Shown: positions 7,667 through 62,589 of the stretch, one piece after another
How the letters are laid out: each line of letters starts with the position of its first letter
Position numbering within the stretch: position 1 is the first letter of the stretch
Sequence record: PQ341120.1
Direction: 5' to 3' (one strand)
Length of the DNA stretch: 64,000 nucleotides
DNA from: Escherichia phage EAWsc9
Program-made: the position numbers and the translations under genes
The notes under the pieces: generated by a model
Database searches by the model: none
Seen by the model: only the letters and a program-made list of their open reading frames with translations
What the model was told of the DNA's origin: nothing

Positions 7667-7692
7667 AATCATCTCCAGTAGTTGATAGGTTC

Positions 7693-7720
7693 ATTATACT
7701 ACAACCACTGGAGATGTACA
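7693..7720 (-). promoter_or_regulatory. Early promoter (TGTACA-16-TATAAT)
   Basis: -35/-10 pattern on minus strand followed by conserved leader. Confidence 0.45.
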
Positions 7721-7811
7721 CTCTTTTACGCAAGTTTCATTAATAATAAACTAAAACAAACGCAAATTACTGGGATACACAACATCCAGATAAGACACCA
7801 GGTTTTGCTGC

Positions 7812-8078
7812 TCAAAATATCACCTCTTTGATTTCAATCAGACCCCTGTGCAATGCGGTGCGAAGGTCATAAAGAATATCTATGCCATCAACATTATCCA
7901 GTTTTCCATCAATAAGCTTTTTTAAATCTTCCTTTGATGCAACCAGCGGGCGAAGAAATTTACATTCAGAAAGAGACAATTCTGTAGTAACATCATCGCC
8001 ATCGCCTGACGCATCATACATAGCGGCAACAACCATACCTGTAACTTTGTGCTTGGCGTAATATAATTTGATATCCAT
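7812..8078 (-). CDS. Hypothetical protein (88 aa)
   Basis: ATG at 8078 with SD GAGGAAAA. Confidence 0.5.
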   Translation of the reverse strand: MDIKLYYAKHKVTGMVVAAMYDASGDGDDVTTELSLSECKFLRPLVASKEDLKKLIDGKLDNVDGIDILYDLRTALHRGLIEIKEVIF

Positions 8079-8088
8079 TCTGTTTTCC

Positions 8089-8244
8089 TCACGCATAACG
8101 ATTGTATGTATTTTTACGACAAGCGTAAAATTGACGCTCAGTAACTGCAAAACTTTTTCCGCGCTGTTGCATTAATTTAAAAAATTCAGTGATATCGCCA
8201 TTAACTTCAAGATATAAAGTCATTGCATATTGAGCAGGTTTCAT
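8089..8244 (-). CDS. Hypothetical protein (51 aa)
   Basis: ATG at 8244 with SD GGAGAATAAA, downstream of promoter cassette. Confidence 0.4.
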   Translation of the reverse strand: MKPAQYAMTLYLEVNGDITEFFKLMQQRGKSFAVTERQFYACRKNTYNRYA

Positions 8245-8283
8245 TTTATTCTCCAGGTTTGTTTGGTAACTCAGTATGGAATC

Positions 8284-8312
8284 ATTATACATAGACTCCA
8301 TACTGATGTACA
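8284..8312 (-). promoter_or_regulatory. Early promoter cassette (TGTACA-17-TATAAT + CCATACTGAGTTACC leader)
   Basis: Repeated family member. Confidence 0.5.
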
Positions 8313-8323
8313 CTACTTTTTAA

Positions 8324-8599
8324 TTAATTGTGCATTTGTTCTTTAACTTCTTTATATGCGCCAACTGCATTCACGACCCCAGTAAAATCTGCAGTCCCAC
8401 GATAGAGATAGAAAGCGATTTCAGTCAGGTGGTAGACTTCAAATTCTGAAAGATAAATGATAACGTCATAATAGGCAACTTGCCCCTGGACTTCGTTGAA
8501 TACTACATCAAAAATTTCATGGGTTGGAAAATTGATGTTGTTGTTTTTGAGTGCTTGAATAAGAATTTGTTTGATGTTATTAGTAGTAACGTGTTCCAT
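8324..8599 (-). CDS. Hypothetical protein (91 aa)
   Basis: ATG at 8599 with SD GAGGA. Confidence 0.5.
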   Translation of the reverse strand: MEHVTTNNIKQILIQALKNNNINFPTHEIFDVVFNEVQGQVAYYDVIIYLSEFEVYHLTEIAFYLYRGTADFTGVVNAVGAYKEVKEQMHN

Positions 8600-8646
8600 G
8601 ATAATGTCCTCATTTGTTGGTGTGAGGACATTATTACATGGTTGGT

Positions 8647-9240
8647 TCAGCTTGTAAACCGGTGATAGGGAAATTTTTCTTCTGAACAAGAACGGAGGTA
8701 CCAGCCATCCCCTTGTGACTTCTGCACAAGACCAGACTCAGGAACGAAAGCGCCAGGTCCAGCAAGGAATTTTGGTTTAAATCTATAACCTTTGATAGTC
8801 TCTTTTACATTAAACATAATCATAAGGTCAGCAAGCTTGTGCTGCATAAAAGGACCAAGATTGACCCCGTAACCATGCGGATAATCACCATGGCTGCCAG
8901 TGTGCACGGATATCCATTTGGAGTCAGACTGATGAGTTTTGACTTCGATTCTTACCCCTTCTTTCGAAACTACATCAAATGCAAAGGAATAAGGATTATC
9001 GTAATCTTCATCGCCACCACATAAAAAACCGGAGGTCCATTTAGCAATAGCTTGTTCAGCCATTGTAGCCACCATACATCTTTGCATGACTTGCTCACGG
9101 TCCTGGCCAGGGTCTTTACGCAATGAATACCTGGCAGTGTCTACAATCTTTTGCAGGGATTCGGGGGTTAAGTCTTCTTTTGTATAAAGAAAGGAGGGCA
9201 TCTTTTTCAGATGCTCCCATGTTTTACTCTTCTGAATCAT
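8647..9240 (-). CDS. denB: Endonuclease IV (DenB)-position protein
   Basis: 197 aa ORF between ndd and rIIB where T4 carries denB (185 aa); sequence itself not verified. Confidence 0.45.
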   Translation of the reverse strand: MIQKSKTWEHLKKMPSFLYTKEDLTPESLQKIVDTARYSLRKDPGQDREQVMQRCMVATMAEQAIAKWTSGFLCGGDEDYDNPYSFAFDVVSKEGVRIEVKTHQSDSKWISVHTGSHGDYPHGYGVNLGPFMQHKLADLMIMFNVKETIKGYRFKPKFLAGPGAFVPESGLVQKSQGDGWYLRSCSEEKFPYHRFTS

Positions 9241-9244
9241 AATG

Positions 9245-9565
9245 TCATCCTTTAAAATACATATCGGATTTTTCGATAATATCTAAAGAATTTTGCTCAG
9301 CTTGCTCTTGATAATCGCTGCCAATATAAACTTTGTCCACATGAACGACGCCATAATAAATTCTGGCACTTTCGGCTAGTGTAGAATGGTCCAGACTACG
9401 AAGTTCTTCTTTCGTTGCAAGAATGATGTCCCTCGCATATAACCGCCCAGTTGACTTTGTAGAAGCATAATGACAATCCACACAATAAACAATATCCGCA
9501 ACATGATTACCATGCAACCGGATTTCGTTAATAGATTCATCGCCAACGTTCATATAGTTAATCAT
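9245..9565 (-). CDS. Hypothetical protein (106 aa)
   Basis: ORF with SD GGTGA. Confidence 0.5.
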   Translation of the reverse strand: MINYMNVGDESINEIRLHGNHVADIVYCVDCHYASTKSTGRLYARDIILATKEELRSLDHSTLAESARIYYGVVHVDKVYIGSDYQEQAEQNSLDIIEKSDMYFKG

Positions 9566-9568
9566 AAT

Positions 9569-9766
9569 TTATTCACCAAAATAAGAGATACGGATTGCCA
9601 GTACATGAGCATATGCGCCCATCGCATCCAGTTGGGCAATCAAAAGACCTTGTTGACGGATATCAAGAGTTTCAAAAACTCCACCCTTAATAAACTCTTC
9701 AAGAGCATTAATTTTCAAAACCAGCTGGTCATATTCTTCAACTACACGTGCTTGGAAACCTAACAT
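9569..9766 (-). CDS. Hypothetical protein (65 aa)
   Basis: ORF with SD GAGG, follows hairpin. Confidence 0.45.
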   Translation of the reverse strand: MLGFQARVVEEYDQLVLKINALEEFIKGGVFETLDIRQQGLLIAQLDAMGAYAHVLAIRISYFGE

Positions 9767-9778
9767 AAAGCCTCATTA

Positions 9779-9792
9779 GGGGCCGAAGCCCC
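9779..9792 (-). promoter_or_regulatory. UUCG-tetraloop hairpin (GGGGC-UUCG-GCCCC on transcript) downstream of rIIB
   Basis: Perfect 5-bp GC stem with CGAA/UUCG loop. Confidence 0.5.
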
Positions 9793-9799
9793 GATTAAT

Positions 9800-10771
9800 T
9801 TAGAATTGTTCAGTTACATCATCAAGAACCAGGTAACCACAAACCCTCATCTTACTATCCCCATAATCCACCGGGATACTTACAACATCGCGCGGGTGAA
9901 CTTTACAGGATACGATGCGCCCATCACCATGACCAAAACCACTTCCGATATAACCTTTAGAGCAAACGTGCAACCCAGTTGAACAGGTTTGTTCGTCATT
10001 GTCATTCACACGAGAGCGCGGCATTTTAACATATTGGCCAGGGCTGTTGTCGAATGTATTTGAGTGACAATCTTTGTATGTTGCACGAACCATTTTCCAT
10101 GCGATGAAATGACCGTCTTCGGTGATTTCGATATCGTTAGCAACCAGGAAGTCAAACAAACGCTGTACTGCTTTTTCACTCGGGTTCTCAAGGAGATTCT
10201 CAAGGAATGGCAGATAGAATTCAAAGTCTTCACCATTTTGCATTGAATCAATGATACGAGTAACCAGGCCGGAGCGCAGTTCAATTCCCTGATAGAACAG
10301 ACTACCACCTTCAATACGCACATCACCTTTCACATATTTTTGCACCGCAGCTTTGATTGAGATAAACTCGATAGCATCGTCAAAACGAGATTCTTTGAGT
10401 GCCTGAATAATATCATTAAAGTGTTTATGGTCTTTTGTTGCGTTCCAGACTGTACGGCCTTCAGTGATGGAAACGAATTTGCTTGATGCGTTCCATACGA
10501 TTTCTGGGCGGCTTCCGCCGATTGTATCAGTAACCGGGACTTCAACCGTTACTGTCACCGGAGCATTAATCGCCACACCAACGGCTGCTTTCAGTGATGC
10601 AGAAATGGTTTTAGCTAATTTTGATTCTTTATCATTTTTCAAAACGCGGCGAATGGTGTCAACGGACACAGCAAAATATTCTGCCAATTCAGGCTGGGTA
10701 TAATTGCCCGTTGAATACATCTGGACCACATCAGCTTGTTCGGCTTTAGACATACATTTGATATTAAACAT
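9800..10771 (-). CDS. rIIB: rIIB protein
   Basis: 323 aa directly downstream of rIIA, size and position as T4 rIIB (312 aa). Confidence 0.8.
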   Translation of the reverse strand: MFNIKCMSKAEQADVVQMYSTGNYTQPELAEYFAVSVDTIRRVLKNDKESKLAKTISASLKAAVGVAINAPVTVTVEVPVTDTIGGSRPEIVWNASSKFVSITEGRTVWNATKDHKHFNDIIQALKESRFDDAIEFISIKAAVQKYVKGDVRIEGGSLFYQGIELRSGLVTRIIDSMQNGEDFEFYLPFLENLLENPSEKAVQRLFDFLVANDIEITEDGHFIAWKMVRATYKDCHSNTFDNSPGQYVKMPRSRVNDNDEQTCSTGLHVCSKGYIGSGFGHGDGRIVSCKVHPRDVVSIPVDYGDSKMRVCGYLVLDDVTEQF

Positions 10772-10772
10772 A

Positions 10773-13007: not shown

Positions 13008-13014
13008 GTTTTTC

Positions 13015-13218
13015 TCACTTTATGTTACGTTTGATTAATTCTGCAACTTCAAGAAGTTCATCCTTTGTTGCGGTGTCTGAAGCTATTTTAATACGGATTT
13101 CTTTGAAGCGTTCTTTAAACTCTTCAGCTTCTCTTATATCAAAAAATCGTTGGATAACACGGTATTCTTTATGGACAGCTTTATCAAACAGTTCCATATT
13201 AACTTTGAAGTTTGTCAT
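13015..13218 (-). CDS. Hypothetical protein (67 aa), rIIA.1 position
   Basis: ATG at 13218 with SD AGGAGA. Confidence 0.45.
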   Translation of the reverse strand: MTNFKVNMELFDKAVHKEYRVIQRFFDIREAEEFKERFKEIRIKIASDTATKDELLEVAELIKRNIK

Positions 13219-13483: not shown

Positions 13484-13529
13484 ATTTTCACCTCAAGGAT
13501 ATCCTAACGCACTTTTTACAGCTTGTACA

Positions 13530-17741: not shown

Positions 17742-17770
17742 ATTATACTCTGACCCCAAGAGTTTGTACA
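17742..17770 (-). promoter_or_regulatory. Early promoter stem-loop cassette
   Basis: 44-nt block identical to ndd promoter region. Confidence 0.5.
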
Positions 17771-17778: not shown

Positions 17779-18534
17779 TTAATTAAAAATTTCAACAACC
17801 ATGGAACGTGGTACAACAGTAAATTCACCAGCGTGGACAACGTTCAGGAGTTCAACACCATCTTCAATCCACTGGTCTGTTACCCAACCACAAATGGAAC
17901 TGTTAAATGGGCGTTTGATTTGAACTGGTTTGCATAACAAGTCAATAGGGTCACCCAGTTCGCTAACTTCTTCCAGAAGTACAGATTCACGCGGATAAAG
18001 GATAGCTTCAAGATTGTCACCTGATTCATTGACTGCAGTAAATTCAAAGATGCTTTGGTGATTGTGGTACTTAACTGTTTTAACGGTAAATGGAGCAAAT
18101 CCAAAAATACCTTTCAGTACCCGCCAACCAGCATGCATTGCGACAGTCTTTCCAAACTGACTGGCATCTTCAATAAGCTGATAGGTTTTACCAACTTTGA
18201 TAGGAATTTCTTCAACTTCTTTGAAGAGTACAATCTCAGCTTCATAAATCATAATTTTTTCTACTTCATTAGTATCAAGGCGACGTGCATGCAGAATATA
18301 TGCGTTATCAAACCAGTTACTTTTTACAAAAGTTTCAACAATAAATTCGCCTTTACCCAAAGCATCAACCAGAGTATTATACCCTAAAACCATAGCTGCG
18401 TTTTGAACAATAGGTTCAATCAGTTGATAAGTTTTGTTAATTTCAATAGTCATATTTTGTTTCTCAAGTTTTAATGGTTTAATTGGACACACGTAAGTGC
18501 TTACAACATCAAAGTCAATAAATTCTGGTTTCAT
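17779..18534 (-). CDS. Hypothetical protein (251 aa), paralog of 17145..17699 with internal repeat
   Basis: C-terminal CGWVTDQWIEDGVELLNVVHAGEFTVVPRSMVVEI; KTYQLIE motif occurs twice. Confidence 0.65.
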   Translation of the reverse strand: MKPEFIDFDVVSTYVCPIKPLKLEKQNMTIEINKTYQLIEPIVQNAAMVLGYNTLVDALGKGEFIVETFVKSNWFDNAYILHARRLDTNEVEKIMIYEAEIVLFKEVEEIPIKVGKTYQLIEDASQFGKTVAMHAGWRVLKGIFGFAPFTVKTVKYHNHQSIFEFTAVNESGDNLEAILYPRESVLLEEVSELGDPIDLLCKPVQIKRPFNSSICGWVTDQWIEDGVELLNVVHAGEFTVVPRSMVVEIFN

Positions 18535-18791
18535 TATGCAACCTTATTGAACATCGCCAGTTGATTAGGTTGTACAACCATAATTTCACGACGGCCTTTT
18601 GCGTTTGACACGTTCAAGTAGATGCCTTTGTTCATGTCTGTTTCTTTATCATATACCGCAATTTTATTGACAGTAAAGATTTTACCACGAATATTTGTAA
18701 ATGCACATTCAAACGCTTCAGTCAGACCTGCTTCAGCAGCTTGAAGAGCAGACATTTCATATTGTTGGCCAATTTCAAAAGAAGTAATCAT
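18534..18791 (-). CDS. Hypothetical protein (85 aa)
   Basis: ATG at 18791 with SD GAGGA partly inside a leader hairpin. Confidence 0.5.
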   Translation of the reverse strand: MITSFEIGQQYEMSALQAAEAGLTEAFECAFTNIRGKIFTVNKIAVYDKETDMNKGIYLNVSNAKGRREIMVVQPNQLAMFNKVA

Positions 18792-18821
18792 TTTGTTATC
18801 CTCATCAGTAGTTGATGAGAT

Positions 18822-18851
18822 GATTATGTCTCTTTCCATTGGCCTTGTACA
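18822..18851 (-). promoter_or_regulatory. Early promoter (TGTACA-18-CATAAT)
   Basis: -35/-10 pattern, conserved CATCAACTACTG leader. Confidence 0.4.
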
Positions 18852-18858: not shown

Positions 18859-19542
18859 TTATCGTTTTTTCGGTAAAGATAACGGGTCTGCATCTTCTTC
18901 GGAAGGAACTTCATCCAAACCAAGAGCATAGCGCTGGGCATACTTAAGCATCAAAATATCTTTCGCGCAGTCATGCACCGAATCATGCGCCACAAATCCA
19001 TCTAAAGTCCCCTTTGGTAATGGAGTTTCACACATCTTACGGACGAGTGATAGGGCTTCGATTGCTGTCCTGATATCTCGCTGGTTCCAGAATACAACCG
19101 GCTCCAGGCCATAGGTATTCAATTCACGCTCGGGAATACCCTCATTGCGCTGTAGGTCACGGATAAGGTCAACAAACAACGGGAAGTCAAAAGACATTCC
19201 ACGACACCACATAAGGCTTTCGTATTTGTTAATTCCATTACCATTCAGATAATCAATTGCCTGTTGGATACCGGTCAGAGTATCAACATCTTGCGCAGAA
19301 GGAGCCAAGTTAACACGGGCTTCTGCTGATTGCTTTTTCCACCAACCCATGGTTGTTGTATCGAACAGACGCTTACCTTTTTGGTATTCAAGGCTAAACT
19401 TGATACGTTTGCCGCGATTAACCAGGGTTTCGAATGATTCCACAATAGCAGGGTCAGATTCGAATGTAATCAGAGCCAGGTCAATAACGGCTCCCTTCGA
19501 GCCGTTTCCCAGAGTTTCAAAGTCAATAATAGCATCAATCAT
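18859..19542 (-). CDS. dexA: Exonuclease A (DexA)
   Basis: 227 aa; IIDFETLG...WCRGMSFDFP...FWNQRDIRT...PLPKGTLDGFVAHDSVHDCAKDI matches T4 DexA (DEDD-type). Confidence 0.88.
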   Translation of the reverse strand: MIDAIIDFETLGNGSKGAVIDLALITFESDPAIVESFETLVNRGKRIKFSLEYQKGKRLFDTTTMGWWKKQSAEARVNLAPSAQDVDTLTGIQQAIDYLNGNGINKYESLMWCRGMSFDFPLFVDLIRDLQRNEGIPERELNTYGLEPVVFWNQRDIRTAIEALSLVRKMCETPLPKGTLDGFVAHDSVHDCAKDILMLKYAQRYALGLDEVPSEEDADPLSLPKKR

Positions 19543-19774
19543 CGCACATCTCTTTTAATTTCTGAATTTCACCAGCAACATAGTCGGAGATAAAAATCCC
19601 TGGCTCTTCATTGTTAAAATATTCAATCGCGGCCATACGTTTCCGAATAAGATTCAGTTCCAGCAAAACGTAATTACCCTGCACGACGATAGTCGGATTA
19701 TCTTCGAAAAATTCAACCGCGTCCTGAATACCATAGATAAGATTATCTAAATCTTCTTTATGTACTTTATACAT
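19535..19774 (-). CDS. Hypothetical protein (79 aa)
   Basis: ATG overlapping dda stop. Confidence 0.45.
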   Translation of the reverse strand: MYKVHKEDLDNLIYGIQDAVEFFEDNPTIVVQGNYVLLELNLIRKRMAAIEYFNNEEPGIFISDYVAGEIQKLKEMCDD

Positions 19775-22271: not shown

Positions 22272-22886
22272 TTAGTTCAAAACAGTTAAATGCCAAACAG
22301 TATACAGGTTATTCAATGGGTGTGTTTCAATTAAGTCTACGCGAAGCGTAGTCCCAGCGGGAAACATAAACTCATCCTCATCATTAACCAGGTGTAAGTT
22401 TGACTTCCTGGTTGCTTCTGGATATGCACCATTGAACTCTTCAGGAGGAGCACCACAAATCATTTTGAAGATTGCTTCCTGATAGTTATACGCATATGGT
22501 GCATTGTTTATACAGAAAATGTTCCTTGTGCCATAGAAACTGTATGATGCGAAATTTCTTGCAACTTGCCAGTCCCTGGAAAAACTCATTACACGATTGA
22601 ATTCAATTGTTGCACCAACATATCTTAAATCTTCCAGGTATTCCATGGTTTTCTTTGATATACCACGGAACAATGCTGCCGGCGGTGCAGTATTCAGATT
22701 GTTGCGGATAATCCTGGACAAGTCTTCTTGAATCAGGTCAGGTTTATTTTCCATACACTGCCAGAGTACTGATTGCTCATTATCTGTGTAAAGAGCATCA
22801 ATCTCCGCTTGACATTGGTTACGAAAAGACTCACTAGAAGCGGCAGTGTCAATAATTCCATTCAAAACGTCATCAGTGTACAGCAT
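22272..22886 (-). CDS. modA: ADP-ribosyltransferase ModA-like
   Basis: 204 aa; R (LFRGI), STS-type (VMSFS) and ExE-type (EDEFMFP) motifs of R-S-E ARTs; tandem with modB downstream of dda as in T4. Confidence 0.7.
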   Translation of the reverse strand: MLYTDDVLNGIIDTAASSESFRNQCQAEIDALYTDNEQSVLWQCMENKPDLIQEDLSRIIRNNLNTAPPAALFRGISKKTMEYLEDLRYVGATIEFNRVMSFSRDWQVARNFASYSFYGTRNIFCINNAPYAYNYQEAIFKMICGAPPEEFNGAYPEATRKSNLHLVNDEDEFMFPAGTTLRVDLIETHPLNNLYTVWHLTVLN

Positions 22887-22930
22887 TTTATTATCCTCAT
22901 CAGTAGTTGATAGGAACATCTTAACGTGTC

Positions 22931-23491
22931 TTATTGCTCTTGTACACAGTCAAGAACATAATAATCATCAATAAATCCAGCATCAACTACCACGAATTTC
23001 TGGTCAACTGGAACAAACCATTCAAGCTCAGAATCAATCATGTCCATGTATTCTTCGCGCCTTAATGTAGCTGCCCGGGCGGAACCAGAAGCTGTATTGA
23101 AGAATTCCAGTGGAACGTCAAGCGCAATTTTGCGCATCGCATCATGGTAGCAAAAAGCTTTGGTCTGATTCAATCTGACGATAGTCCTAGTCACATATTC
23201 CATTGCAGCAAAATCCCTGGCAATACCATAGTCTTCTGTAAAGGAGGTTACCCGTCCAAATTCAAAAGGTTGCATTGATTCTTTTGCTTCATCTAATAAA
23301 TCAATCTCTTGCTGGGTTACTCCGCGCCACAAGACTGTATCGGGTATAGACAACCTTGACTTGATGATTGAGTTGACATTTGAATGCAAGGTCTTATCAA
23401 CCTTTGATGTACGGCATTCAAATAATGAAGCTATCTCCATTTCACTAAATTTTAACTGGTTGGGTTCGGTATCAGATTTGATGATGTTCAT
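22931..23491 (-). CDS. modB: ADP-ribosyltransferase ModB-like
   Basis: 186 aa; LWRGV, VTSFT, SELEWFVP motifs. Confidence 0.7.
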   Translation of the reverse strand: MNIIKSDTEPNQLKFSEMEIASLFECRTSKVDKTLHSNVNSIIKSRLSIPDTVLWRGVTQQEIDLLDEAKESMQPFEFGRVTSFTEDYGIARDFAAMEYVTRTIVRLNQTKAFCYHDAMRKIALDVPLEFFNTASGSARAATLRREEYMDMIDSELEWFVPVDQKFVVVDAGFIDDYYVLDCVQEQ

Positions 23492-25327: not shown

Positions 25328-25352
25328 AGTATTCTCCTCTGTAATTGAAATA

Positions 25353-28848: not shown

Positions 28849-29142
28849 TTATTCACCTGTAACCCATTGAACAATTTTGCTATTGTCAAATGAAGCATCG
28901 CAATACAGAACATAGTTATACTGCATAACGTCACCAGAAGTCAATTTGTCAGATACTTCTTTAACCATATCAGGGCGGTCACGTTTAGTTATGTTCATAA
29001 TATCAGCATAAATCTGATGTTCAACATCAGTCTGGTCAGCAGTCATAGACCACTCACAAAGGTCTTTATCAAGTCCAGCAGTAACTGGAGCTGTACCACA
29101 TGATGCTACGGTAAGAATTGCTGCAATTAATAACTTTTTCAT
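28849..29142 (-). CDS. sp: Spackle (Sp) periplasmic superinfection-exclusion protein
   Basis: 97 aa; signal peptide then DKDLCEWSMTADQT...DIMNITKRDRP...MQYNYVLYCD matches my recollection of T4 Sp (97 aa). Confidence 0.75.
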   Translation of the reverse strand: MKKLLIAAILTVASCGTAPVTAGLDKDLCEWSMTADQTDVEHQIYADIMNITKRDRPDMVKEVSDKLTSGDVMQYNYVLYCDASFDNSKIVQWVTGE

Positions 29143-29180
29143 TTCAATCTCCTCAGTAGTTGATAGGGATAATATACTGC

Positions 29181-29209
29181 ATTATCCCTTTGATGTACAC
29201 TTATTTTTC
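29181..29209 (-). promoter_or_regulatory. Early promoter (TGTACA-17-GATAAT) upstream of sp
   Basis: Followed by CTATCAACTACTGAGGAG leader. Confidence 0.4.
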
Positions 29210-29755: not shown

Positions 29756-30073
29756 TTAGATTTCCTCACAGAAGGCCCATTCGGCGTGATAAACTGTTGC
29801 GCCTTTAGTATCATTTAAACAAACCACGTCAACAGGTGCAATCACACGATAAAGACGGGGTTCTCCTCCATATGAGCGAGCTGCTCTTCCTGCATAGATA
29901 CGGGCCAAACCAATATCTTCAGTAAAAAACACACGCCCTAAATTTTTCTTGCGCCCAACTTCTGACAGAACACCAGTTGCATCAGGAGGGCAAAGCATAT
30001 TTTGGATTCCAGCATTAGAGCTTGAGCCATGATAATAAACTTTGTATTCCGCCTTGCAATCAATAGTTTTCAT
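29756..30073 (-). CDS. Hypothetical protein (105 aa) with YHGSS motif
   Basis: Own promoter and leader; first gene after the 41 terminator; not recognised as a T4 gene. Confidence 0.55.
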   Translation of the reverse strand: MKTIDCKAEYKVYYHGSSSNAGIQNMLCPPDATGVLSEVGRKKNLGRVFFTEDIGLARIYAGRAARSYGGEPRLYRVIAPVDVVCLNDTKGATVYHAEWAFCEEI

Positions 30074-30092
30074 TTTATTCTCCAGTAGTTGA

Positions 30093-30120
30093 TAGGGTCA
30101 TTATAACATAAGAAAAAGGG
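30093..30120 (-). promoter_or_regulatory. Early promoter (-10 TATAAT) with -35 inside terminator loop
   Basis: TATAAT followed by CCCTATCAACTACTGGAGAA leader. Confidence 0.4.
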
Positions 30121-30130
30121 GCTGTAAGCC
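30105..30130. terminator. Hairpin terminator after gene 41 (AGGGGC-loop-GCCCCT, A/T runs both sides)
   Basis: 6-bp GC stem flanked by AAAAA and TTTT. Confidence 0.55.
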
Positions 30131-30144
30131 CCTTTTAAAATATT

Positions 30145-34063: not shown

Positions 34064-34132
34064 TTTAATATCCTTAAGTTATTCATCAGTTGATGGAGTA
34101 ATCATACGGCAATCCTTTGCCGTTGTAAACAC

Positions 34133-47547: not shown

Positions 47548-47720
47548 AATTTAATTTCCTTAGCTACTGAACAAAATACACCACGGTCACAAATCATTTT
47601 AATATTAAGGTCAATTATGGTATACCACACATCCAGACTAGATATTTCAGTTACTAGAACAGCTTTGCCGTTGATTGAATAATACTGGTTGACTTTAATT
47701 TCTTTATCTTGGATAGTCAT
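47544..47720 (-). CDS. Hypothetical protein (58 aa)
   Basis: SD GAGGAAAA; ATGA overlap with downstream gene. Confidence 0.4.
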   Translation of the reverse strand: MTIQDKEIKVNQYYSINGKAVLVTEISSLDVWYTIIDLNIKMICDRGVFCSVAKEIKL

Positions 47721-47786
47721 TATGTTTTCCTCATCATTAGTTGATGGGATAATGATACACCGTTCAAAGGGGCTTGTACACCCCTT

Positions 47787-48104
47787 TTAATCTTCAATTA
47801 AGTCCTGGTCATACCCCAGGGATATCAGTTTTGTTTTAAAGGCAGGAATATTGGTCATTTTTTCATCATTGACAAAAATCACCGGGTAACGAATGTTAAG
47901 GGTAGGATATCCAGCACGCTTAGCCAGAGACACGATTAAAGGCCTGTCATAAGCGATTTCAGAGCCTTGTTTGTTAAGGACTGAATAGAATGTATAAGGA
48001 AGGTTTAAGGAGCCCAGAAGGCTCCTGACGTGCATACAACCAGGGCATCGACCGACTTCTTCGGGGATACCATAGATTTCAATCTTAGTCGAGTTTTGGC
48101 CCAC
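47787..48104 (-). CDS. nrdH: Glutaredoxin-like redoxin (NrdH position)
   Basis: 105 aa; CPGC redox motif in thioredoxin-fold context; upstream of nrdG/nrdD. Confidence 0.6.
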   Translation of the reverse strand: MGQNSTKIEIYGIPEEVGRCPGCMHVRSLLGSLNLPYTFYSVLNKQGSEIAYDRPLIVSLAKRAGYPTLNIRYPVIFVNDEKMTNIPAFKTKLISLGYDQDLIED

Positions 48105-51500: not shown

Positions 51501-51677
51501 TTAAATCTTATAAAACGCGCGGTGTAACCGTTTAAATTGACGAATCATCTTTTTAGTAGGACGAGTATACAATCCCACACAGGTGGCCATAAACTGGTCG
51601 GTAGGACTTCCTTTAATAAGAAGTTTCCAGACCTTGTCACCATTTAACTTTTCAGTATAGACTAATGCAGTTTTCAT
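51501..51677 (-). CDS. Hypothetical protein (58 aa)
   Basis: TAATG coupling with upstream gene. Confidence 0.4.
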   Translation of the reverse strand: MKTALVYTEKLNGDKVWKLLIKGSPTDQFMATCVGLYTRPTKKMIRQFKRLHRAFYKI

Positions 51678-55035: not shown

Positions 55036-55093
55036 AGTGTTCTCCTCATAAAGTAGGAATTCATTATACTCCCTCCATCCTTGGAAGTAAACA

Positions 55094-55969
55094 TTATTTT
55101 AATGCTAAAATCGCCGCCTGCAATTTATTGCGTTGTTTTTCCATGTTCTTGATGCGATTCAGAACATCCTGGATACCCTTTTTCTCATCTTCAATCAGAC
55201 CGTTTAAGCGGTTGACTGATTCCTGGATAGCATCAGCATGATAGCTCTCAATAGGCTTCATTGGTGGGTTAAAGATTTCAAGAGAGCTGTTTGGCTGGAT
55301 TTTCCATTGATACATATTTTTAACTTCCAGTGGTGAAATTTTAGCCTGGTCGTAAGATTTAAACTGACCTGTAACTGCTGGGTTATATGCTGCAGTAGGG
55401 GTTTCCATTTCTGGTTCCTTTTTCTCTTGATAAGGAGCATAAGACAAAAGATATTCTTTAGTTAATTTAATATCAATGACTATAGTTTTAAGGAATTTTT
55501 CTGTTTGATGGATATAATTTGTATCTTCTTCAAACGTGTATGCTTCAACGGCATGACGCATATAAAACAGAGCAATACCCATAACCTCTTTAAAGGTATC
55601 ACAAAGAGCAACATCACCCTTAGTAGTTGGCTTGAACTTAATCTGCACGCCATCGTTCTTGATATTAATAATCAAGTTATCGGAGTTAAAATTATAGTTC
55701 TTGATGTTAACCGGAGCCTTGCGAATACGAAGCCCTGCAGCCAGGATTTCCTTAATGCTCTTACGAACTGTGGCACCAAACAAAAACGCAGGGCGGCGGC
55801 AGTAATCATTCAGAGAGTTAATTCTTACAATACGTTGTCCATACCCCTGGGTGGCAGAACCTGATTTGATTTTACCAAAGTTAACCAGAGAATTCATCGC
55901 GATAAGACGGGTTGCACGACCTTCACGCTGTTCAAATCGAGAATATTCTTTACGTGTTTTAATTTTCAT
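55094..55969 (-). CDS. Paralog family member 2 (~291 aa) with C-terminal coiled coil
   Basis: RATRLIAMNSLVNFGK motif; start ambiguous (ATG 55969 or 55993); C-terminus ...KLQAAILALK. Confidence 0.55.
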   Translation of the reverse strand: MKIKTRKEYSRFEQREGRATRLIAMNSLVNFGKIKSGSATQGYGQRIVRINSLNDYCRRPAFLFGATVRKSIKEILAAGLRIRKAPVNIKNYNFNSDNLIINIKNDGVQIKFKPTTKGDVALCDTFKEVMGIALFYMRHAVEAYTFEEDTNYIHQTEKFLKTIVIDIKLTKEYLLSYAPYQEKKEPEMETPTAAYNPAVTGQFKSYDQAKISPLEVKNMYQWKIQPNSSLEIFNPPMKPIESYHADAIQESVNRLNGLIEDEKKGIQDVLNRIKNMEKQRNKLQAAILALK

Positions 55970-57033: not shown

Positions 57034-57096
57034 AATAATTTCCTCAATAGATTAATCAAAGGTCAGAACCATTATACCATCCTTGGTATAAAGCGT

Positions 57097-57621: not shown

Positions 57622-57657
57622 TTTATTCTCCAGTATTTGGTAACTCAGTATGGGAAC

Positions 57658-57686
57658 ATTATACGCCCATCCCCATACCATGTACA
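57658..57686 (-). promoter_or_regulatory. Early promoter cassette (TGTACA-17-TATAAT + CCATACTGAGTTACC leader)
   Basis: Repeated family member. Confidence 0.5.
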
Positions 57687-57689
57687 CAT

Positions 57690-57992
57690 TTAATTAAAAG
57701 TTCTTTCAGTATTTTCACCACTGAACCAGACGCTCTTAACGGCTTGCTGGGCGCGATGTAGCTGCTCTGCCATATAAACACCAAGGGCCTCAGCCTTACG
57801 TGTCCTGTGGGCTTCTGCGGCGACTATTTGCAACTTATCCATCATGATAAGAGCTTTACATTTCTCCTTCAGAGCATATCGCTTCTTCTCTTCTGGAGTT
57901 TTGACCATTCCTCTTAACTTGTGCATTTTCAACTTAAAATGGTCAGCAGATTTCAGACATGCCTCAATCATGTCAAGTTCATACTTTTTCAT
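57690..57992 (-). CDS. Hypothetical basic helical protein (100 aa)
   Basis: SD GAGGA. Confidence 0.5.
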   Translation of the reverse strand: MKKYELDMIEACLKSADHFKLKMHKLRGMVKTPEEKKRYALKEKCKALIMMDKLQIVAAEAHRTRKAEALGVYMAEQLHRAQQAVKSVWFSGENTERTFN

Positions 57993-57998
57993 AATTCC

Positions 57999-58205
57999 TC
58001 ACTTGCGACGACGTTTTGGTAATGGTTTAGGGAAGAACATTGCTTTACCTGCAGGGGTCAAAGTCACACGCAAAGCATTACCAATACCAAGGGATGCTTT
58101 AACCAGACCTTTGGCTTTTAACTCACCAAATGCTTGACGTTGTTCAGGGTCACGAGTGTTAACCATCAGACCTTTTTCACCAGCAGCTTTGATTAATTCT
58201 AACAT
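57999..58205 (-). CDS. Hypothetical basic protein (68 aa)
   Basis: SD GGAGAATAAA. Confidence 0.5.
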   Translation of the reverse strand: MLELIKAAGEKGLMVNTRDPEQRQAFGELKAKGLVKASLGIGNALRVTLTPAGKAMFFPKPLPKRRRK

Positions 58206-58246
58206 TTTATTCTCCGTTTGTTTATTTGGTAACTCAGTATGAAATC

Positions 58247-58275
58247 ATTATGCATCATGACCATCTGGTTGTACA
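58247..58275 (-). promoter_or_regulatory. Early promoter cassette (TGTACA-17-CATAAT + CCATACTGAGTTACC leader)
   Basis: Repeated family member; abuts start of plus-strand gene. Confidence 0.5.
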
Positions 58276-58322
58276 CATATACTAAATAAAAATACTTAAT
58301 AAAACCATAAAGGAGAAAGTTT

Positions 58323-59069
58323 ATGATTTTATCCGGAAGAACTGTTGATGAACTCAATGAAAAAGTCCAGGCTGCCTTGGCTAATAATTGGTATTTGTTT
58401 GGTTCTACTATGGTGTTGCCGAATACCCCTACAGATAGCAAAGAGCGTTTTTTCCAAACTATGTCCAGCTCGGAAACTCAGATACCGGGCCCGCCTGGGC
58501 CAAAAGGAGACCCGGGTGTACCAGGACCAAAAGGAGACCCAGGCGGGGATGGAAAGTCTTCTTATCAGATATGGCTTGACTTGGGAAATACAGGAACTGT
58601 TGATGATTTTTTAACTGATACAGCAGGAAAGAGGGAAAAATCCGAGGTGTTTTGGAGTGGTATAAACGTTCTATTAACTAATGGTACGACTTCAAACATA
58701 ATTAGTGTTTTAAAGGGGATTCCACCGACTGCAGGGACTCTATCTCCGTTTTTTAGAACCACTGATGATAAGTTGTGGCCATATAACCAAGACAGAAGCC
58801 TAATGTTTAAACTCAACCTTATTGGTAATTTTGCAGGAGCCTCGCAAGCTCGAAGTATAACATTAAATTTCGTTGGAACCAACGGAAACACTTATATACA
58901 GAATCGTCCGGAAAATGCTACAGATATTTTGTCTTTTACAACGTTCTTTAGCATTGATAAAGATGGGGCAATGGCAACCAATGGTACAGCTATAACTGTT
59001 ATGCCAAATGGCGGCAACTTTACAATAACCTCTGCATTGTTAGTAGCCGAACAAACAGTGACTTCATAA
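58323..59069 (+). CDS. Collagen-repeat fibre-like protein (248 aa), plus strand
   Basis: Strong SD AAAGGAGAAAG; Gly-X-Y run GPPGPKGDPGVPGPKGDPGGDG followed by SSYQIWLDLGNTGTVDDFL, the motif that follows collagen repeats in many phage fibre proteins; Asn/Thr-rich C-terminal domain. Confidence 0.65.
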   Translation: MILSGRTVDELNEKVQAALANNWYLFGSTMVLPNTPTDSKERFFQTMSSSETQIPGPPGPKGDPGVPGPKGDPGGDGKSSYQIWLDLGNTGTVDDFLTDTAGKREKSEVFWSGINVLLTNGTTSNIISVLKGIPPTAGTLSPFFRTTDDKLWPYNQDRSLMFKLNLIGNFAGASQARSITLNFVGTNGNTYIQNRPENATDILSFTTFFSIDKDGAMATNGTAITVMPNGGNFTITSALLVAEQTVTS

Positions 59070-59077
59070 ACAAAAAA

Positions 59078-59091
59078 GGGCCATCCGGCCC
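59078..59091 (-). terminator. Hairpin (GGGCC-loop-GGCCC) + U-run terminating the minus-strand NTase operon
   Basis: Stem-loop followed by UUUUUUG on minus transcript; sits between convergent genes. Confidence 0.5.
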
Positions 59092-59280
59092 TTAGATTGC
59101 ACTCCAAAAATTATGGAATCTTATAGTATTGATAGCCCAGTTAACAAACCCGCGAGTTTGTTTGGGAGTTGGTTTGCATATGTACTTATTGTTGATTCGT
59201 CTGCCAGTTTCCCGACAGACTGCTTCGAGATACCAGCGCCGACCTTTATTAGGTCTTCCGTATGATAAGAAGACCTTCAT
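59092..59280 (-). CDS. Small basic Cys-containing protein (62 aa)
   Basis: ATG 8 nt after NTase stop; MKVFLSYGRPNKGRRWYLEAVCRETGRRINNKYICKP. Confidence 0.45.
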   Translation of the reverse strand: MKVFLSYGRPNKGRRWYLEAVCRETGRRINNKYICKPTPKQTRGFVNWAINTIRFHNFWSAI

Positions 59281-59287
59281 TTCTTCA

Positions 59288-60298
59288 TTAACGATAATAG
59301 GAATTGTGGTTGTCAAGATATACCTCTTCAACAAACTTGTCCCAGAACTTCATGTCTACCTTATCAGGCATACCATTCTTAGCAGCCTGGATGGCCAGAA
59401 CTTCAACTAAATCGACAGTATCTTCAAGAAGTTCTTGAACTTCTTTAAATGGCAATTCACCAGCTTTAATCAGCTTAATGATAGAGGCTTCACGCAATGG
59501 GAATACCAAGTCACCCGTTTGGTAGATTTCCATCAATTGATACCCTGCACGATAAGCATGGCTCAGTGCTTTCCAATCAATACCTTCGTTAGCTTCTGCT
59601 TTACGAGCACGTTCACCATATTCGGCGTCGAGTTTATTCAGAGATTGCTTGAGCTCGATTAATGACAGAGTAGTTTGGTATTTACGACCGAGGACAGTAT
59701 AGAACGTTTGAGGACCTGTTTTCTCATGGTTATGAAATACCCATTCGCAGAACTCGTTTTCAGGGAGTCTGTGTTTGATATCTTCTACCTTAGTACGTCG
59801 TTGCTTAGCGGAACCATCTTCTTGATAGTCAACCCATTGTTCAGGAATCTGGTTAACAATTTCCAATACACCACGCAGTGCAGCCAATCGAGAACCTTTA
59901 ACACCATATTTGGAAGCTTGCTTACGGACGTACCCCAAATAGGCTTTCATGTTAGTTGTATAGAACCGTGAACGGTTGTCCTGAATAAACTTCCATACAT
60001 CTGGTAAATCGGATTTGACTATCAGGTCAGCCGGGGTGTGAATCATATCCAGAGCAACGGTTTCGCCATCAGCCGCCAGTTTAAAGAAATATTTCAGACT
60101 ATAAAGTTCATGGTCAACATCATCTTTTGTATTTTTGGTAGCCGTGTTATTCGTGTTCAGGTTGGTATGGTTCATCGCGGTTCCGAGCAGGATATCTCGC
60201 GGATGAGGAACAAAGATTTCTTTAAAATCGACATCAGATTCCGGGGTACTTGTTCCATAAAGATGGCTACCGAAGTAGCCTTTCATAATAGCTTTCAT
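59288..60298 (-). CDS. Putative Pol-beta-superfamily nucleotidyltransferase (336 aa)
   Basis: SD GAGGACAAAGA; N-terminus FGSHLYGTSTPESDVDF fits the hG[GS]-x9-13-[DE]h[DE]h NTase signature; start overlaps upstream stop (ATGA). Confidence 0.6.
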   Translation of the reverse strand: MKAIMKGYFGSHLYGTSTPESDVDFKEIFVPHPRDILLGTAMNHTNLNTNNTATKNTKDDVDHELYSLKYFFKLAADGETVALDMIHTPADLIVKSDLPDVWKFIQDNRSRFYTTNMKAYLGYVRKQASKYGVKGSRLAALRGVLEIVNQIPEQWVDYQEDGSAKQRRTKVEDIKHRLPENEFCEWVFHNHEKTGPQTFYTVLGRKYQTTLSLIELKQSLNKLDAEYGERARKAEANEGIDWKALSHAYRAGYQLMEIYQTGDLVFPLREASIIKLIKAGELPFKEVQELLEDTVDLVEVLAIQAAKNGMPDKVDMKFWDKFVEEVYLDNHNSYYR

Positions 60299-60747
60299 TC
60301 TTTGTCCTCGAAGTGGATTACTGGGCACATCTTAGATTTACGAGCTTTGATATATTGAATGAAAACATTTTCTTTAATTTCCTTTCCTTCACGTTTAGCT
60401 TTAATGCGTTCCCATTCTTTTTCTTCTTTACGTAAATCGTACCAGGCCCATAAATTCATTAGACCATACATTAGACCAAATGCTACCGTCAGAATAAGAG
60501 CCAGTGTAGCTAGTCCTAAAATAAACCCTAAGCCTAAACCGACCGGGGTGCTTAATACAAAGAAATGCTCTAATACACCTGCACCCGCGACAGTTAATCC
60601 AAAAACCATACTACCGATAAAAACGGCACAAACAAAACAAGCCCAAACCATTTTCCAGAAATAAGCACACAAAGAGTGTGGACGAGAATGACGGTCATAA
60701 AAACGGTCGTGGAAACGAGCGTGCCATGAGTTTGTATTGATAATCAT
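60295..60747 (-). CDS. Membrane protein (150 aa), His/Arg-rich N-terminus, ~3 TM helices
   Basis: SD AAGGAAA; hydrophobic segments VWACFVCAVFIGSMVFGLTVAGAGV, FFVLSTPVGLGLGFILGLATLALILTVAFGLMYGL. Confidence 0.6.
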   Translation of the reverse strand: MIINTNSWHARFHDRFYDRHSRPHSLCAYFWKMVWACFVCAVFIGSMVFGLTVAGAGVLEHFFVLSTPVGLGLGFILGLATLALILTVAFGLMYGLMNLWAWYDLRKEEKEWERIKAKREGKEIKENVFIQYIKARKSKMCPVIHFEDKE

Positions 60748-60758
60748 AATAATTTTCC

Positions 60759-61319
60759 TTAAGAGTTCATAGTTGGGATAACAGAGTTCAGATAAGAGAC
60801 TAAAACTTTTAGCTCGTCCTTAGTAAATACCACTTCACTTTCGCCGTCATGTCTTTGGACAATAGATAACAGGTCACGGCCGTTATGTTGATGCACAGTT
60901 AATTCAGTATTATAATCTAGTTCCTCTTCATCGCCTTCAAACGTTTCACTAGAGCGAATCAGTGCATCTTGTCCCGGAACTTTCCATTCAACTTCCGGTT
61001 TACATTCTTCCTGGAAGAGTTTGAAAATACAATCAAAGAATTTATCAGAATCGCTAATGCTCAGGCATTCTATACCATTTTCCAGATTAAACCCATTTTC
61101 ATTTTTATAGATATAAGCGTATAGCTCATCGTTAATATCGACAGGAGCACTATTACGTCCATTGAGATAGTCAGCTCTATCCAAAACCATTAAATCATAA
61201 AGTGGTTTAATATCTTGGATAGTCAGTACGATTTTATCGTCTTCTTGGCAAAGCTCGATTGCGTTATTAACCACTTCAGCAGTCAGTTCGCCAAACAATT
61301 CAGTTGTTTCAATAATCAT
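60759..61319 (-). CDS. Hypothetical strongly acidic protein (186 aa)
   Basis: ORF; high Asp/Glu content. Confidence 0.55.
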   Translation of the reverse strand: MIIETTELFGELTAEVVNNAIELCQEDDKIVLTIQDIKPLYDLMVLDRADYLNGRNSAPVDINDELYAYIYKNENGFNLENGIECLSISDSDKFFDCIFKLFQEECKPEVEWKVPGQDALIRSSETFEGDEEELDYNTELTVHQHNGRDLLSIVQRHDGESEVVFTKDELKVLVSYLNSVIPTMNS

Positions 61320-61329
61320 TTTCTGTTCC

Positions 61330-61545
61330 TCAACGGTTATGTTTTAAAATACTATAAAGCGCTTCTACTTGGCTTGCATCCAGGTAAATAACATCATCAT
61401 CTTGCTCAATGGAAATCCCACCGGTATTACCTTTAACAAAATTACATTCGCATACTTCAACTGGGCGGTATACGTCACCAACTGGATGCTCAGGCTCCAG
61501 AACAATCACACCATTTTCAGAATTACCGCTTGGGTCATATAACAT
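61330..61545 (-). CDS. Hypothetical protein (71 aa)
   Basis: ATG at 61545 with SD GAGGAAAA. Confidence 0.45.
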   Translation of the reverse strand: MLYDPSGNSENGVIVLEPEHPVGDVYRPVEVCECNFVKGNTGGISIEQDDDVIYLDASQVEALYSILKHNR

Positions 61546-61636
61546 TACATTTTCCTCACTAACCACGAAAAGAATAAACCGATTAAAATAGGACCTATAA
61601 TCATTGTTGACCAAGCCCAGGGTTCTAAGTAATAAA

Positions 61637-61894
61637 TCATCTCATGCTCCTGTGCCAACAATTTCTTGGTTCACGTTTAAAAATTTCATCATGCATTGAT
61701 TGACAACCAACACAATATATCACACCTTTAATCGCTTGTCTCCGCGCTTCAGGAATTTTTTCGTCGCAGTCAAAACAGAATTCAGCAGACTCCCTTTCAA
61801 CTGCAACTTGTGCTCGTGCGTGAACGATAGCGGCTTGGACAACCGCTTCCATCTCTAACTGTTCAGCACCATCTTTTGCAAATCCAACAGCCAT
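61637..61894 (-). CDS. TraR/DksA-family C4 zinc-finger protein (85 aa)
   Basis: CFDC-x17-CVGC with IPEARRQA between, the TraR/DksA zinc-finger signature. Confidence 0.6.
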   Translation of the reverse strand: MAVGFAKDGAEQLEMEAVVQAAIVHARAQVAVERESAEFCFDCDEKIPEARRQAIKGVIYCVGCQSMHDEIFKREPRNCWHRSMR

Positions 61895-62076
61895 TATTCT
61901 TTCAACTCATTCAGATAAGCAATTAATTCTTCTTTAGAACTATTCAAATCACGCTTGCACTGTTCTATTCCAGAATATGAATAACCTTCACAATATTCAA
62001 CAGCCAGGTCATTGGATGCATTTTCAATGTGCCAGGCGAGTTTGATAATTTTTTCAATCTGTTCAGTAGTTAACAT
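61894..62076 (-). CDS. Hypothetical protein (60 aa)
   Basis: ORF. Confidence 0.45.
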   Translation of the reverse strand: MLTTEQIEKIIKLAWHIENASNDLAVEYCEGYSYSGIEQCKRDLNSSKEELIAYLNELKE

Positions 62077-62080
62077 AATA

Positions 62081-62311
62081 TCACCAGTATTTTTTGATGG
62101 TAGAAATTAATTCTTGGACTTGAGTAGTCTTCAGCTTACACCCACAACCCTTTAAGGTATCTTTAAGGAGCCATGGTTCCTTGAGCTCATCCTTTTCCAG
62201 GCGAATTCTATATCCGCGGTAATCAGCAAATATGCTTCCGTCATCAAATATCTTAATTTCAAGAATATGATTATTGGTTTCATATTCTTGAAACCATGGT
62301 ATTTGTAAGTT
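62081..62311 (-). pseudogene. Start-less 76-codon open frame continuing in-frame after tandem TAA-TGA
   Basis: No ATG/GTG/TTG in frame; ends 4 nt before next gene's ATG; possible pseudogene or recoding site. Confidence 0.25.
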
Positions 62312-62314
62312 TCA

Positions 62315-62521
62315 TTATTCCACCACATATGATAATGAGAAAATTGCTGATGAAAGATGGGTAGCATCTTCTTCACACAGTTCAAATGGAGCTTTCTGTA
62401 AGAGTTCAACCACTTCTTCATCAGTGGCACTGTCCATAAAGATTGCATAATCATTAAGATAGATAACAACCTCATCACCAGTATTAACTGCATCAATCTT
62501 GATATTTTTAATTCTCATCAT
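62315..62521 (-). CDS. Hypothetical protein (68 aa)
   Basis: SD GAGGAGA; terminated by TAA immediately followed by in-frame TGA. Confidence 0.5.
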   Translation of the reverse strand: MMRIKNIKIDAVNTGDEVVIYLNDYAIFMDSATDEEVVELLQKAPFELCEEDATHLSSAIFSLSYVVE

Positions 62522-62589
62522 GTTCTCCTCAGTAGTTGATGGGATAATAGTACACCCTTTTTATGAGGATGTAAACCCCCTAAATGAAA

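Follow-up and report, generated by a model that had tools for sequence, protein, structure and literature searches.

A 64,000-nucleotide stretch of the genome of Escherichia phage EAWsc9 (PQ341120.1; here the window, with position 1 its first base) carries seven copies of a short block that lies directly ahead of minus-strand genes and reads, on that strand, CCYATCAACTACTGAGGAG. By its sequence, the window is the early/middle region of a T4-like coliphage genome of the genus Gaprivervirus; an 8-kb piece of it is 95 to 96% identical to Escherichia phages TH57, VR20, UPEC01, and their relatives, and VR20 is classified in the Straboviridae, Tevenvirinae, genus Gaprivervirus. The window is collinear with VR20 (rIIA, gene 39, motB, dexA, dda, modA/B, soc, 61, sp, dmd, 41, uvsX, imm, 43, regA, 45, 46/47, 55, nrdD, nrdC, and mobD), also takes in the region upstream of rIIA, and has nearly all of its genes on the minus strand. 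All seven copies of the block precede minus-strand genes that are in the early region by T4 synteny, namely, modA, sp, and five small open reading frames (ORFs).

Repeat block and promoter geometry

With up to three mismatches allowed, the plus-strand form of the block, CTCCTCAGTAGTTGATRGG, is matched seven times in the window, on the plus strand only (the match starts are the lower block coordinates in Table 1), against a mean chance expectation of 0.01 matches; none of 100 dinucleotide-preserving shuffles reaches seven. The preliminary description of this DNA had reported such a repeat between a -10-like hexamer and a minus-strand ATG. The repeat exists, its positions agree with ours to within 7 nucleotides (nt), and the placement is true of all seven copies. 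Two copies (4 and 7) are exact and the remaining ones have one to three mismatches, which are confined to the Shine-Dalgarno (SD) end of the block or to the 3 nt preceding its ATCAAC motif.

The copies share one minus-strand layout: an A-rich tract, a -35 hexamer, a spacer of 16 to 17 nt, a -10-like hexamer, 3 nt, the block, 3 to 7 nt, and an ATG that in every case opens an ORF of 38 to 204 amino acids (aa). The -35 hexamers are TGTACA, TTTACA, or CTTACA (in G-TGTACA, GTTTACA, and GCTTACA contexts), the -10 forms are TATAAT, TATATT, TATCAT, TACTAT, CATAAT, and TAAGAT, and an AAAA(G) tract lies upstream in most copies. The features of a T4-type early promoter, a GTTTAC-like -35 and a TAnnAT-like -10 spaced 16 to 18 nt apart with an A-rich tract upstream, are found at all seven. 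An independent consensus scanner also called the promoters of copies 4 and 5, together with the terminator-like stem-loop that has the -35 of copy 5 as its loop. The A of ATCAAC is the seventh base past the -10 and the only purine at the expected start position, and we therefore infer that transcription starts there. Placed in this way, the block would comprise 3 nt of discriminator and transcript positions +1 to +16, including the SD, and the predicted 5' untranslated regions are 20 to 26 nt long.

Aligned on the putative +1, the seven copies are invariant at 11 of the 12 positions from +1 to +12 (ATCAACTACTGA), a stretch more conserved than either the -35 or the -10 hexamer, and the spacers are unrelated among the copies. 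The SD follows in three variants, ACTGAGGAG in copies 4 and 7, ACTGATGAGGA in copies 2, 3, and 6, and ACTGGAGA in copies 1 and 5. That the block supplies the SD, as previously proposed, is borne out by the pairing of UGAGGAG with the last 7 nt of Escherichia coli 16S rRNA (-9.2 kcal/mol; UGAGGA and GGAG give -6.1 and -6.4 kcal/mol, respectively). Spacing from SD to ATG is 6 to 7 nt in every copy but copy 7, which has two tandem ATGs, the first 3 nt and the second 6 nt downstream of the SD.

Two mechanically called ORFs, 18534-18839 (MERD...) and 22272-22919 (MFLST...), begin at 18839 and 22919, within the promoter (spacer or -10 region) and ahead of the predicted +1. The preliminary description took these starts to be artefacts and the downstream ATGs to be genuine, and the comparative data agree: the VR20 annotation uses the downstream ATGs (gp012, 85 aa; ModA, 204 aa), and PHROG profiles align from residue 1 of the proteins so defined for five of the seven genes (1-37/37, 1-85/85, 1-96/96, 1-105/105, and 1-58/60). 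Judged by these alignments, the upstream starts are artefacts.

A degenerate eighth copy is present at the imm promoter (Table 1), a position at which VR20 (ATCAACTACTGATGAC) and T4 imm.1 (ATCAACTACTGATACGG) keep the full leader. VR20 also has a counterpart of cassette 7, at 51642.

Table 1. Predicted early-promoter cassettes carrying the block (all on the minus strand; coordinates of the window)
Cassette	Extent	-35	-10	Block	Predicted +1	ATG	Gene that follows	Other features
1	7664..7720	TGTACA, 7720-7715	TATAAT, 7698-7693	7689-7671	7686	7666	38-aa membrane peptide (phrog_3098)	SD GGAG
2	18789..18851	18851-18846	CATAAT, 18828-18823	CTCATCAACTACTGATGAG, 18819-18801	18816	18791	85-aa ORF, VR20 gp012 homologue, T4 motB.2 position	
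3	22884..22946	22946-22941	TAAGAT, 22923-22918	22914-22896	22911	22886	modA (204 aa)	-35 within the 3' end of modB
4	29140..29199	29199-29194	TATATT, 29176-29171	29167-29149 (exact)	29164	29142	sp (spackle, 97 aa)	
5	30071..30136	CTTACA, in stem-loop	TATAAT, 30105-30100	30096-30078	30093	30073	105-aa ORF (phrog_2110), then dmd	Terminator-like stem-loop 30136-30114, -35 in its loop
6	47718..47788	In stem-loop	TATCAT, 47757-47752	47748-47730	47745	47720	58-aa ORF (T4 55.6-like)	Stem-loop AAAAGGGGTGTACAAGCCCCTTT, 47788-47766, holding the -35; SD GAGGAA
7	62516..62612	TTTACA, 62575-62570	TACTAT, 62552-62547	62543-62525 (exact)	62540	62518 (or 62521)	67-aa ORF (phrog_3024)	Terminator 62612-62587
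Degenerate eighth copy	34082..34129	TTTACA, at 34129	TATGAT	Leader ATCAACTGATGAA, 34082-34094			imm promoter	SD further downstream

The block as a probable T-even early-promoter leader

The block is very probably the leader of a T-even early-promoter cassette of the PeSL type, a +1 region found family-wide and not a separate invention of EAWsc9. A 37-nt query spanning -10 through ATG matched 975 phage records, 746 of them with at least 80% query coverage, and the matches are T4-like phages of Escherichia, Shigella, Klebsiella, Yersinia, Enterobacter, Salmonella, and Citrobacter, with T4 and T2 among them. The T4 tRNA.4 promoter (GTTTACATAGGGTTTTAGCTGTGATACTATTACCCTATCAACTACTGAGGAGAATAAAATG) has the leader exactly, and a scan of the whole T4 genome places it after the early promoters of sp, imm.1, motA, nrdC.10, tRNA.4, ndd.4, ndd.6, and cef, after the promoter at 70677, and after others. 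Alignment of 34 T4 early promoters at the -10 gives the consensus AaacCT followed by ATCAAcTAc, and 79% of them have A at +1. Beyond T4, the leader was found at the orthologue of copy 5 in Mosigvirus SSE1, at the orthologue of tRNA.4 in Jiaodavirus JIPh_Kp122, where it carries a 2-nt deletion, and in Dhakavirus JS98-like genomes. What the preliminary description called a second leader family is, on these alignments, the majority form of the T-even early transcript start. An IMG/VR scan with the exact 16-mer returned 33 matches, about chance level by a rough estimate of the collection size, many of them in unrelated contigs, and a literature search with the block as a sequence string found unrelated primer matches only.

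The sp promoter, which is orthologous among genera, permits leader and spacer to be compared directly. Leader identity is 15/16 between the window and T4, 14/16 between the window and JS98, and 13/16 between T4 and JS98, while spacer identity is 3 to 7 of 17 positions; the first 60 coding bases are identical to T4 at 35 to 39 positions. Because the leader is kept at 13 to 15 of 16 positions across three genera while the spacer is not, the pattern at sp argues for constraint on the leader itself over recent copying of whole cassettes. An IMG/VR search for relatives of Sp gave seven loci, all in Gaprivervirus or Dhakavirus, and wider sampling of sp orthologues drew on individual GenBank records.

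The likeness to the T4 early promoters (Pe, the 'UP/-35/TGn/-10' class) lies in the GTTTAC-type -35, the 17-nt spacer, the TAnnAT hexamer, the upstream A-tract, and the location ahead of immediate-early genes. Many T4 Pe share with the EAWsc9 block a start region beginning ATCAACTAC, and 'additional regions of consensus' have been noted in T4 early promoters (Hinton 2010, PMC2988021). The two sets differ in that the -35 is mostly GTGTACA in EAWsc9 and GTTTAC in T4, the -10 mostly TATAAT in EAWsc9 and TACTAT in T4, and the discriminator G/A-CCC-rich in EAWsc9, where the promoters are predicted ones. PeSL elements are described, in the portions of Arbiol et al. (2010, PMC2839356) and Comeau et al. 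(2014, PMC4122927) considered here, as an AT-rich region, sigma-70-like -35 and -10 boxes, a stem-loop whose place relative to the boxes varies (between, over, or next to them), and an SD and ATG at the end. The EAWsc9 cassettes likewise have a promoter with a stem-loop near or over the -35 or -10, and an SD and start codon at the 3' end of the repeat. Both are composite repeats ahead of small early ORFs in which the stem-loop has no fixed position (it may surround the -35, lie between the boxes, or overlap the -10); one of the EAWsc9 cassettes, number 5, also adjoins a module insertion/deletion against a close relative, as PeSLs do. They differ in that the same portions of the PeSL descriptions end the repeat at the SD and start codon with no mention of a conserved 12-nt leader.

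The block would thus be the transcribed 5' end of a standard immediate-early promoter cassette of the T-even (Tevenvirinae) phages. Host sigma-70 RNA polymerase would bind the A-tract, the GTGTACA or GTTTACA -35, and the TATAAT-like -10, and transcription would begin at the A of ATCAAC. The resulting mRNA leader would be a G-free, unstructured AUCAACUACU followed by a strong SD (UGAGGAG, UGAGGA, or GGAG), and a short leader with a strong SD may give fast, strong expression of early genes. Stem-loops lie around the -35 or -10, and module exchange could use the whole cassette as a PeSL-like patch of homology. In several copies the SD and the A-rich spacer behind it may later be a target of the phage RegB endoribonuclease with S1, by which early mRNAs would be inactivated, as their match to the consensus suggests.

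RegB/S1 targets single-stranded GGAGRAYARAA, with the T4 consensus GGAGAAUAAAA (Durand et al. 2006, PMC1702504). GGAU is accepted given a strict A-rich tail, GGAA is a poor substrate, and the T4 motB.2 site is one of two GGAU sites cut by RegB in vivo (PMC1702504). Three of the seven copies have a full match to GGAGAAUAAAA or GGAUAAUAAAA at the 3' end of the block: GGAGAATAAAA in copy 5 (30083-30073) is exactly the consensus GGAGAAUAAAA, GGATAATAAAA in copy 3 (22896-22886) matches GGAUAAUAAAA and is the identical 11-mer to the T4 motB.2 site, and copy 2 has GGATAACAAAA (18801-18791). The A-rich heptamer is complete (7/7) in these three copies, matches at five of seven positions in copies 4 and 7 and at three of seven in copy 1, and copy 6 carries GGAA. 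These sites resemble those of T4 early mRNAs in combining GGAG or GGAU within the SD with an A-rich heptamer; the difference is that only the last 4 nt of the block fall in the RegB site and the conserved AUCAACUACU lies 5' of it. From these matches, RegB control of about half of the copies is a reasonable inference.

Several points weigh against this account. The start site is placed by spacing and the position of a purine, and the T4 GenBank and RefSeq records have neither promoters nor start sites annotated. The RegB match is poor in copies 1 and 6, regB itself lies outside the window (it is annotated in VR20 as gp112, 55077-55535, equivalent to a position just beyond the window end), and RegB requires no specific information 5' of GGAG (PMC1702504). 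None of our tests accounts for the stronger conservation of positions +1 to +12 than of the -35 and -10 hexamers. A role as an epsilon-type enhancer complementary to 16S rRNA was rejected, as the best duplex (-8.3 kcal/mol) is no better than those of shuffled sequences (mean, -9.5 kcal/mol). A start context favoring NAD capping was dropped, as the -3 to +4 context does not fit; this was not computed. The most economical explanation is that +1 to +12 is a preferred start and initially transcribed sequence (an A-U-C start and 10 G-free nt) for very strong promoters, and it may also serve as an unstructured landing site for S1 and the ribosome. A more speculative proposal, which we consider a long shot, is that the 12-nt start AUCAACUACUGA is a dedicated cis-signal, either a DNA operator or a 5'-RNA tag, for the shutoff or selective handling of T-even immediate-early transcripts, or that it acts with inverted repeats between spacer and leader in promoter-specific expression. 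It comes from the observation that this sequence is kept more strictly than the hexamers and survives at orthologous promoters in at least five genera despite spacer turnover.

Spacer pairing, possible cassette exchange, and proposed self-pairing

A second function for the cassette is suggested by complementarity between spacers and leaders. Copy 1 has as its spacer an inverted repeat (TCTCCAGTGGTTGTAG, 7714-7699) of its leader (CTATCAACTACTGGAGA, 7688-7672), and an RNA read through from upstream would fold at -25.7 kcal/mol with an SD unpaired probability of 0.00. Copy 4 has a stem between GGGATAAT (29188-29181) and ATTATCCC (29173-29166) that overlaps the -10, so that the -10 of both copies lies within an inverted repeat, and the copy 7 spacer includes TCCTCA (62569-62564), complementary to the SD TGAGGA (62531-62526). 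Copies 5 and 6 have the -35 inside a terminator-like stem-loop, copy 7 has a separate terminator just upstream, and copies 2 and 3 have no convincing stem besides the leader itself. Folds of the read-through RNAs, with the promoter included, are more stable than those in which the upstream part is shuffled, with z-scores of -4.7, -2.6, -1.7, -1.6, -2.5, -4.4, and -0.6 for copies 1 to 7, respectively. Inverted leaders in spacers are also seen elsewhere, as a perfect 14-nt repeat in Mosigvirus SSE1 and in T4 at cef, nrdC.10, ndd.4, regB, ipII/denV, and others.

Spacer pairing was tested for 34 early promoters predicted in the T4 genome (KJ477684.1) and 19 in the window. Duplexes between a spacer and its own downstream sequence average -11.25 kcal/mol in T4, compared with -6.64 kcal/mol for noncognate pairs (0 of 5,000 permutations as low), and -8.06 versus -6.07 kcal/mol in the window (P = 0.003); duplexes of -8 kcal/mol or stronger form at 19/34 T4 and 7/19 window promoters. 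The paired region takes in the discriminator and ∼20 nt at the start of the transcript, and the -10 is therefore in the hairpin loop.

These duplexes, far stronger than noncognate ones in both T4 and the window, could serve as insulation from read-through: RNA initiated upstream would form a hairpin that attenuates transcription or hides the leader and SD, and the gene would be expressed mainly from its own early promoter. The SD has an unpaired probability of 0.00 in read-through RNA of T4 nrdC.10, as in that of copy 1, and values below 0.1 are found for read-through RNAs of 12/34 T4 and 5/19 window promoters but for only one own-promoter transcript in each set. Inclusion of the promoter lowers SD accessibility in both sets, that of T4 from 0.68 to 0.38 and that of the window from 0.58 to 0.35. 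However, a foreign early-promoter spacer occludes the SD equally (0.38 for cognate versus 0.34 for foreign spacers in T4, and 0.35 versus 0.35 in the window), in a control that is imperfect in that foreign spacers share anti-SD-like runs. Cognate-specific occlusion of the SD in read-through RNA was therefore rejected, and a cognate SD-directed mechanism cannot be claimed, although the complementarity itself is significant. Among the seven copies, only copy 1 is clear-cut, and copies 4 and 7 keep the SD open. Read-through insulation is thus a possibility that we regard as doubtful.

In the T4 genes e, soc, and 49 and in I-TevI, the ribosome binding site is masked in long transcripts but accessible when transcription begins at a promoter within the hairpin. 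Copy 1 and several T4 early promoters resemble these in that the promoter lies inside an inverted repeat and the hairpin forms only in upstream-initiated RNA. They differ in that the e, soc, 49, and I-TevI promoters are late and the effect there is experimentally shown, whereas the present promoters are early ones, SD occlusion at them lacks cognate specificity, and most of the seven copies are without it. Insulation of this kind would correspond to the PeSL stem-loop function and would be a mirror image of the logic of T4 e, soc, and 49.

The leader could alternatively have no function of its own and be conserved only through copying and homogenization of whole cassettes by recombination, as a mobile PeSL-like repeat. 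The portions of the two PeSL papers considered (PMC2839356 and PMC4122927) demonstrate that PeSL stem-loops attenuate or terminate transcription and take part in recombination between cassettes. The stems of the PST/T4 pair are described there as just upstream of the promoter, and the spacer hairpins of T4 and the window hold the -10 in the loop. Mini-circle formation by recombination between cassettes is a further PeSL feature. The set of genes bearing the leader differs between T4 and EAWsc9, and a breakpoint in the window/VR20 alignment (30135/30145) coincides with the 5' edge of cassette 5. After gene 41, VR20 has an extra module (19636-19750 and 19333-19635), consisting of a terminator, a promoter with a leader of another family (CCATACTGAGTTAC), and an ORF, gp040, followed by the homologue of cassette 5. 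The module is absent from the window, and its junctions share ATTTTAAAAAGGG-TACA, the module being joined at the AAAAGGG-TACA part of cassette 5. By this alignment, the cassette 5 insertion/deletion has the PeSL pattern of gain or loss of a promoter-plus-ORF module by cassette exchange, as a single example; only 1 of ∼10 window/VR20 breakpoints falls at one of the seven cassettes. Moreover, the spacers of the seven copies are unrelated and the adjacent 12 nt invariant, and homogenization would therefore have to be confined to ∼20 nt. At the orthologous sp promoters, likewise, spacers have turned over fully around a retained leader. Conservation by copying alone is accordingly an improbable explanation of the leader, and the reading as a constrained early-promoter leader is preferred.

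The preliminary description had also proposed that in several copies the block pairs with itself (CUCAUCA/UGAUGAG) and could so hide the SD, which would make it a translational switch of its own mRNA. Copy 2 does have a perfect hairpin of 7 bp with a 5-nt loop, and copies 3 and 6 have imperfect versions of it, but the TGATGAG 3' arm is missing from the other four copies, and the 5' arm begins with 3 nt (CTC, CCT, or CCC) that precede the predicted +1. The 5' arms CTCATCA, CCTATCA, and CCCATCA vary with no compensating change in the 3' arm, and thus there is no covariation. An Rfam scan of the whole window at gathering thresholds found no family, and the self-hairpin has no match. Own-promoter transcripts folded from +1 to 15 nt past the ATG have minimum free energies of 0 to -2.1 kcal/mol in the seven copies, with a mean SD unpaired probability of ∼0.56; for the three hairpin copies the values are -1.0 to -2.1 kcal/mol and 0.21 to 0.55. 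In these models the own-promoter leaders are essentially unstructured, and SD occlusion within the gene's own transcript is not supported. Strong occlusion is seen only in predicted read-through RNA that includes the promoter spacer, clearly for copy 1 alone, and an own-transcript switch is highly improbable.

A binding site at +1 to +12 for a phage or host factor, whether DNA operator or 5'-RNA tag, acting for instance in early-promoter shutoff, is very unlikely in spite of the greater conservation of the box than of the core hexamers, a partial dyad (ATCA-N5-TGAT) in the TGAT variants, and reviews stating that the shutoff mechanism is not understood (PMC2988021 and PMC3014915), as no candidate factor is known, the dyad is missing from four of the seven copies, the box is missing from many T4 early promoters, and start-site and initial-nucleotide preference explains the conservation of +1 to +4 equally well.

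Other leaders and promoters are present in the window. Another leader family, beginning CCATACTGAGTTACCAAA, follows TATAAT or CATAAT at five minus-strand early-type promoters with -35 elements at 57686, 22211, 8312, 58275, and 3864, and is probably the first family of the preliminary description. Two of these promoters, those at 8312 and 57686, have as their spacer an inverted copy of the leader (TCAGTATGGA...TCCATACTGA), with cognate duplexes of -20.8 and -16.0 kcal/mol, respectively. A third family, at 17770 and 6553 (minus strand), has identical promoters and leaders (TGTACAAACTCTTGGGGTCAGAGTATAATGACCCCACTGGAG) with GGGGTC and GACCCC flanking the -10, and T4 has a counterpart at 7202 (GGGACC...GGTCCC). 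At 25349 (minus strand), upstream of an ORF beginning MLNRW, a block-like leader, TTCAATTACAGAGGAG, follows GGTATAAT; it is preceded by the MotA-box-like TTTGCTTTTA, after a terminator, and the promoter looks middle rather than early, whereas the T4 orthologue of the site (15274) has a GTTTAC early promoter.

Two plus-strand ORFs concern the setting of the window. That at 161-814 (217 aa) is a T-type holin by its profile match (phrog_860, 6e-93) and marks the left end as upstream of rIIB and rIIA. The other, at 58323-59069 (248 aa), runs opposite to the surrounding early region, matches the PHROG 'tail needle knob' profile (3e-67), and lies within a ∼1-kb segment with no VR20 alignment (breakpoints 58276/59288).

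Significance of the leader in T-even phages

Two gene calls with false N-terminal extensions are corrected by these comparisons, and in Gaprivervirus genomes the block may be used in annotation to mark true early transcription units and their correct start codons, as well as to flag early genes that are likely RegB controlled. The T4 early-promoter cassette, including the first 12 to 16 bases that are predicted to be transcribed, appears to be kept almost unchanged across Tequatrovirus, Mosigvirus, Dhakavirus, Gaprivervirus, and Jiaodavirus.

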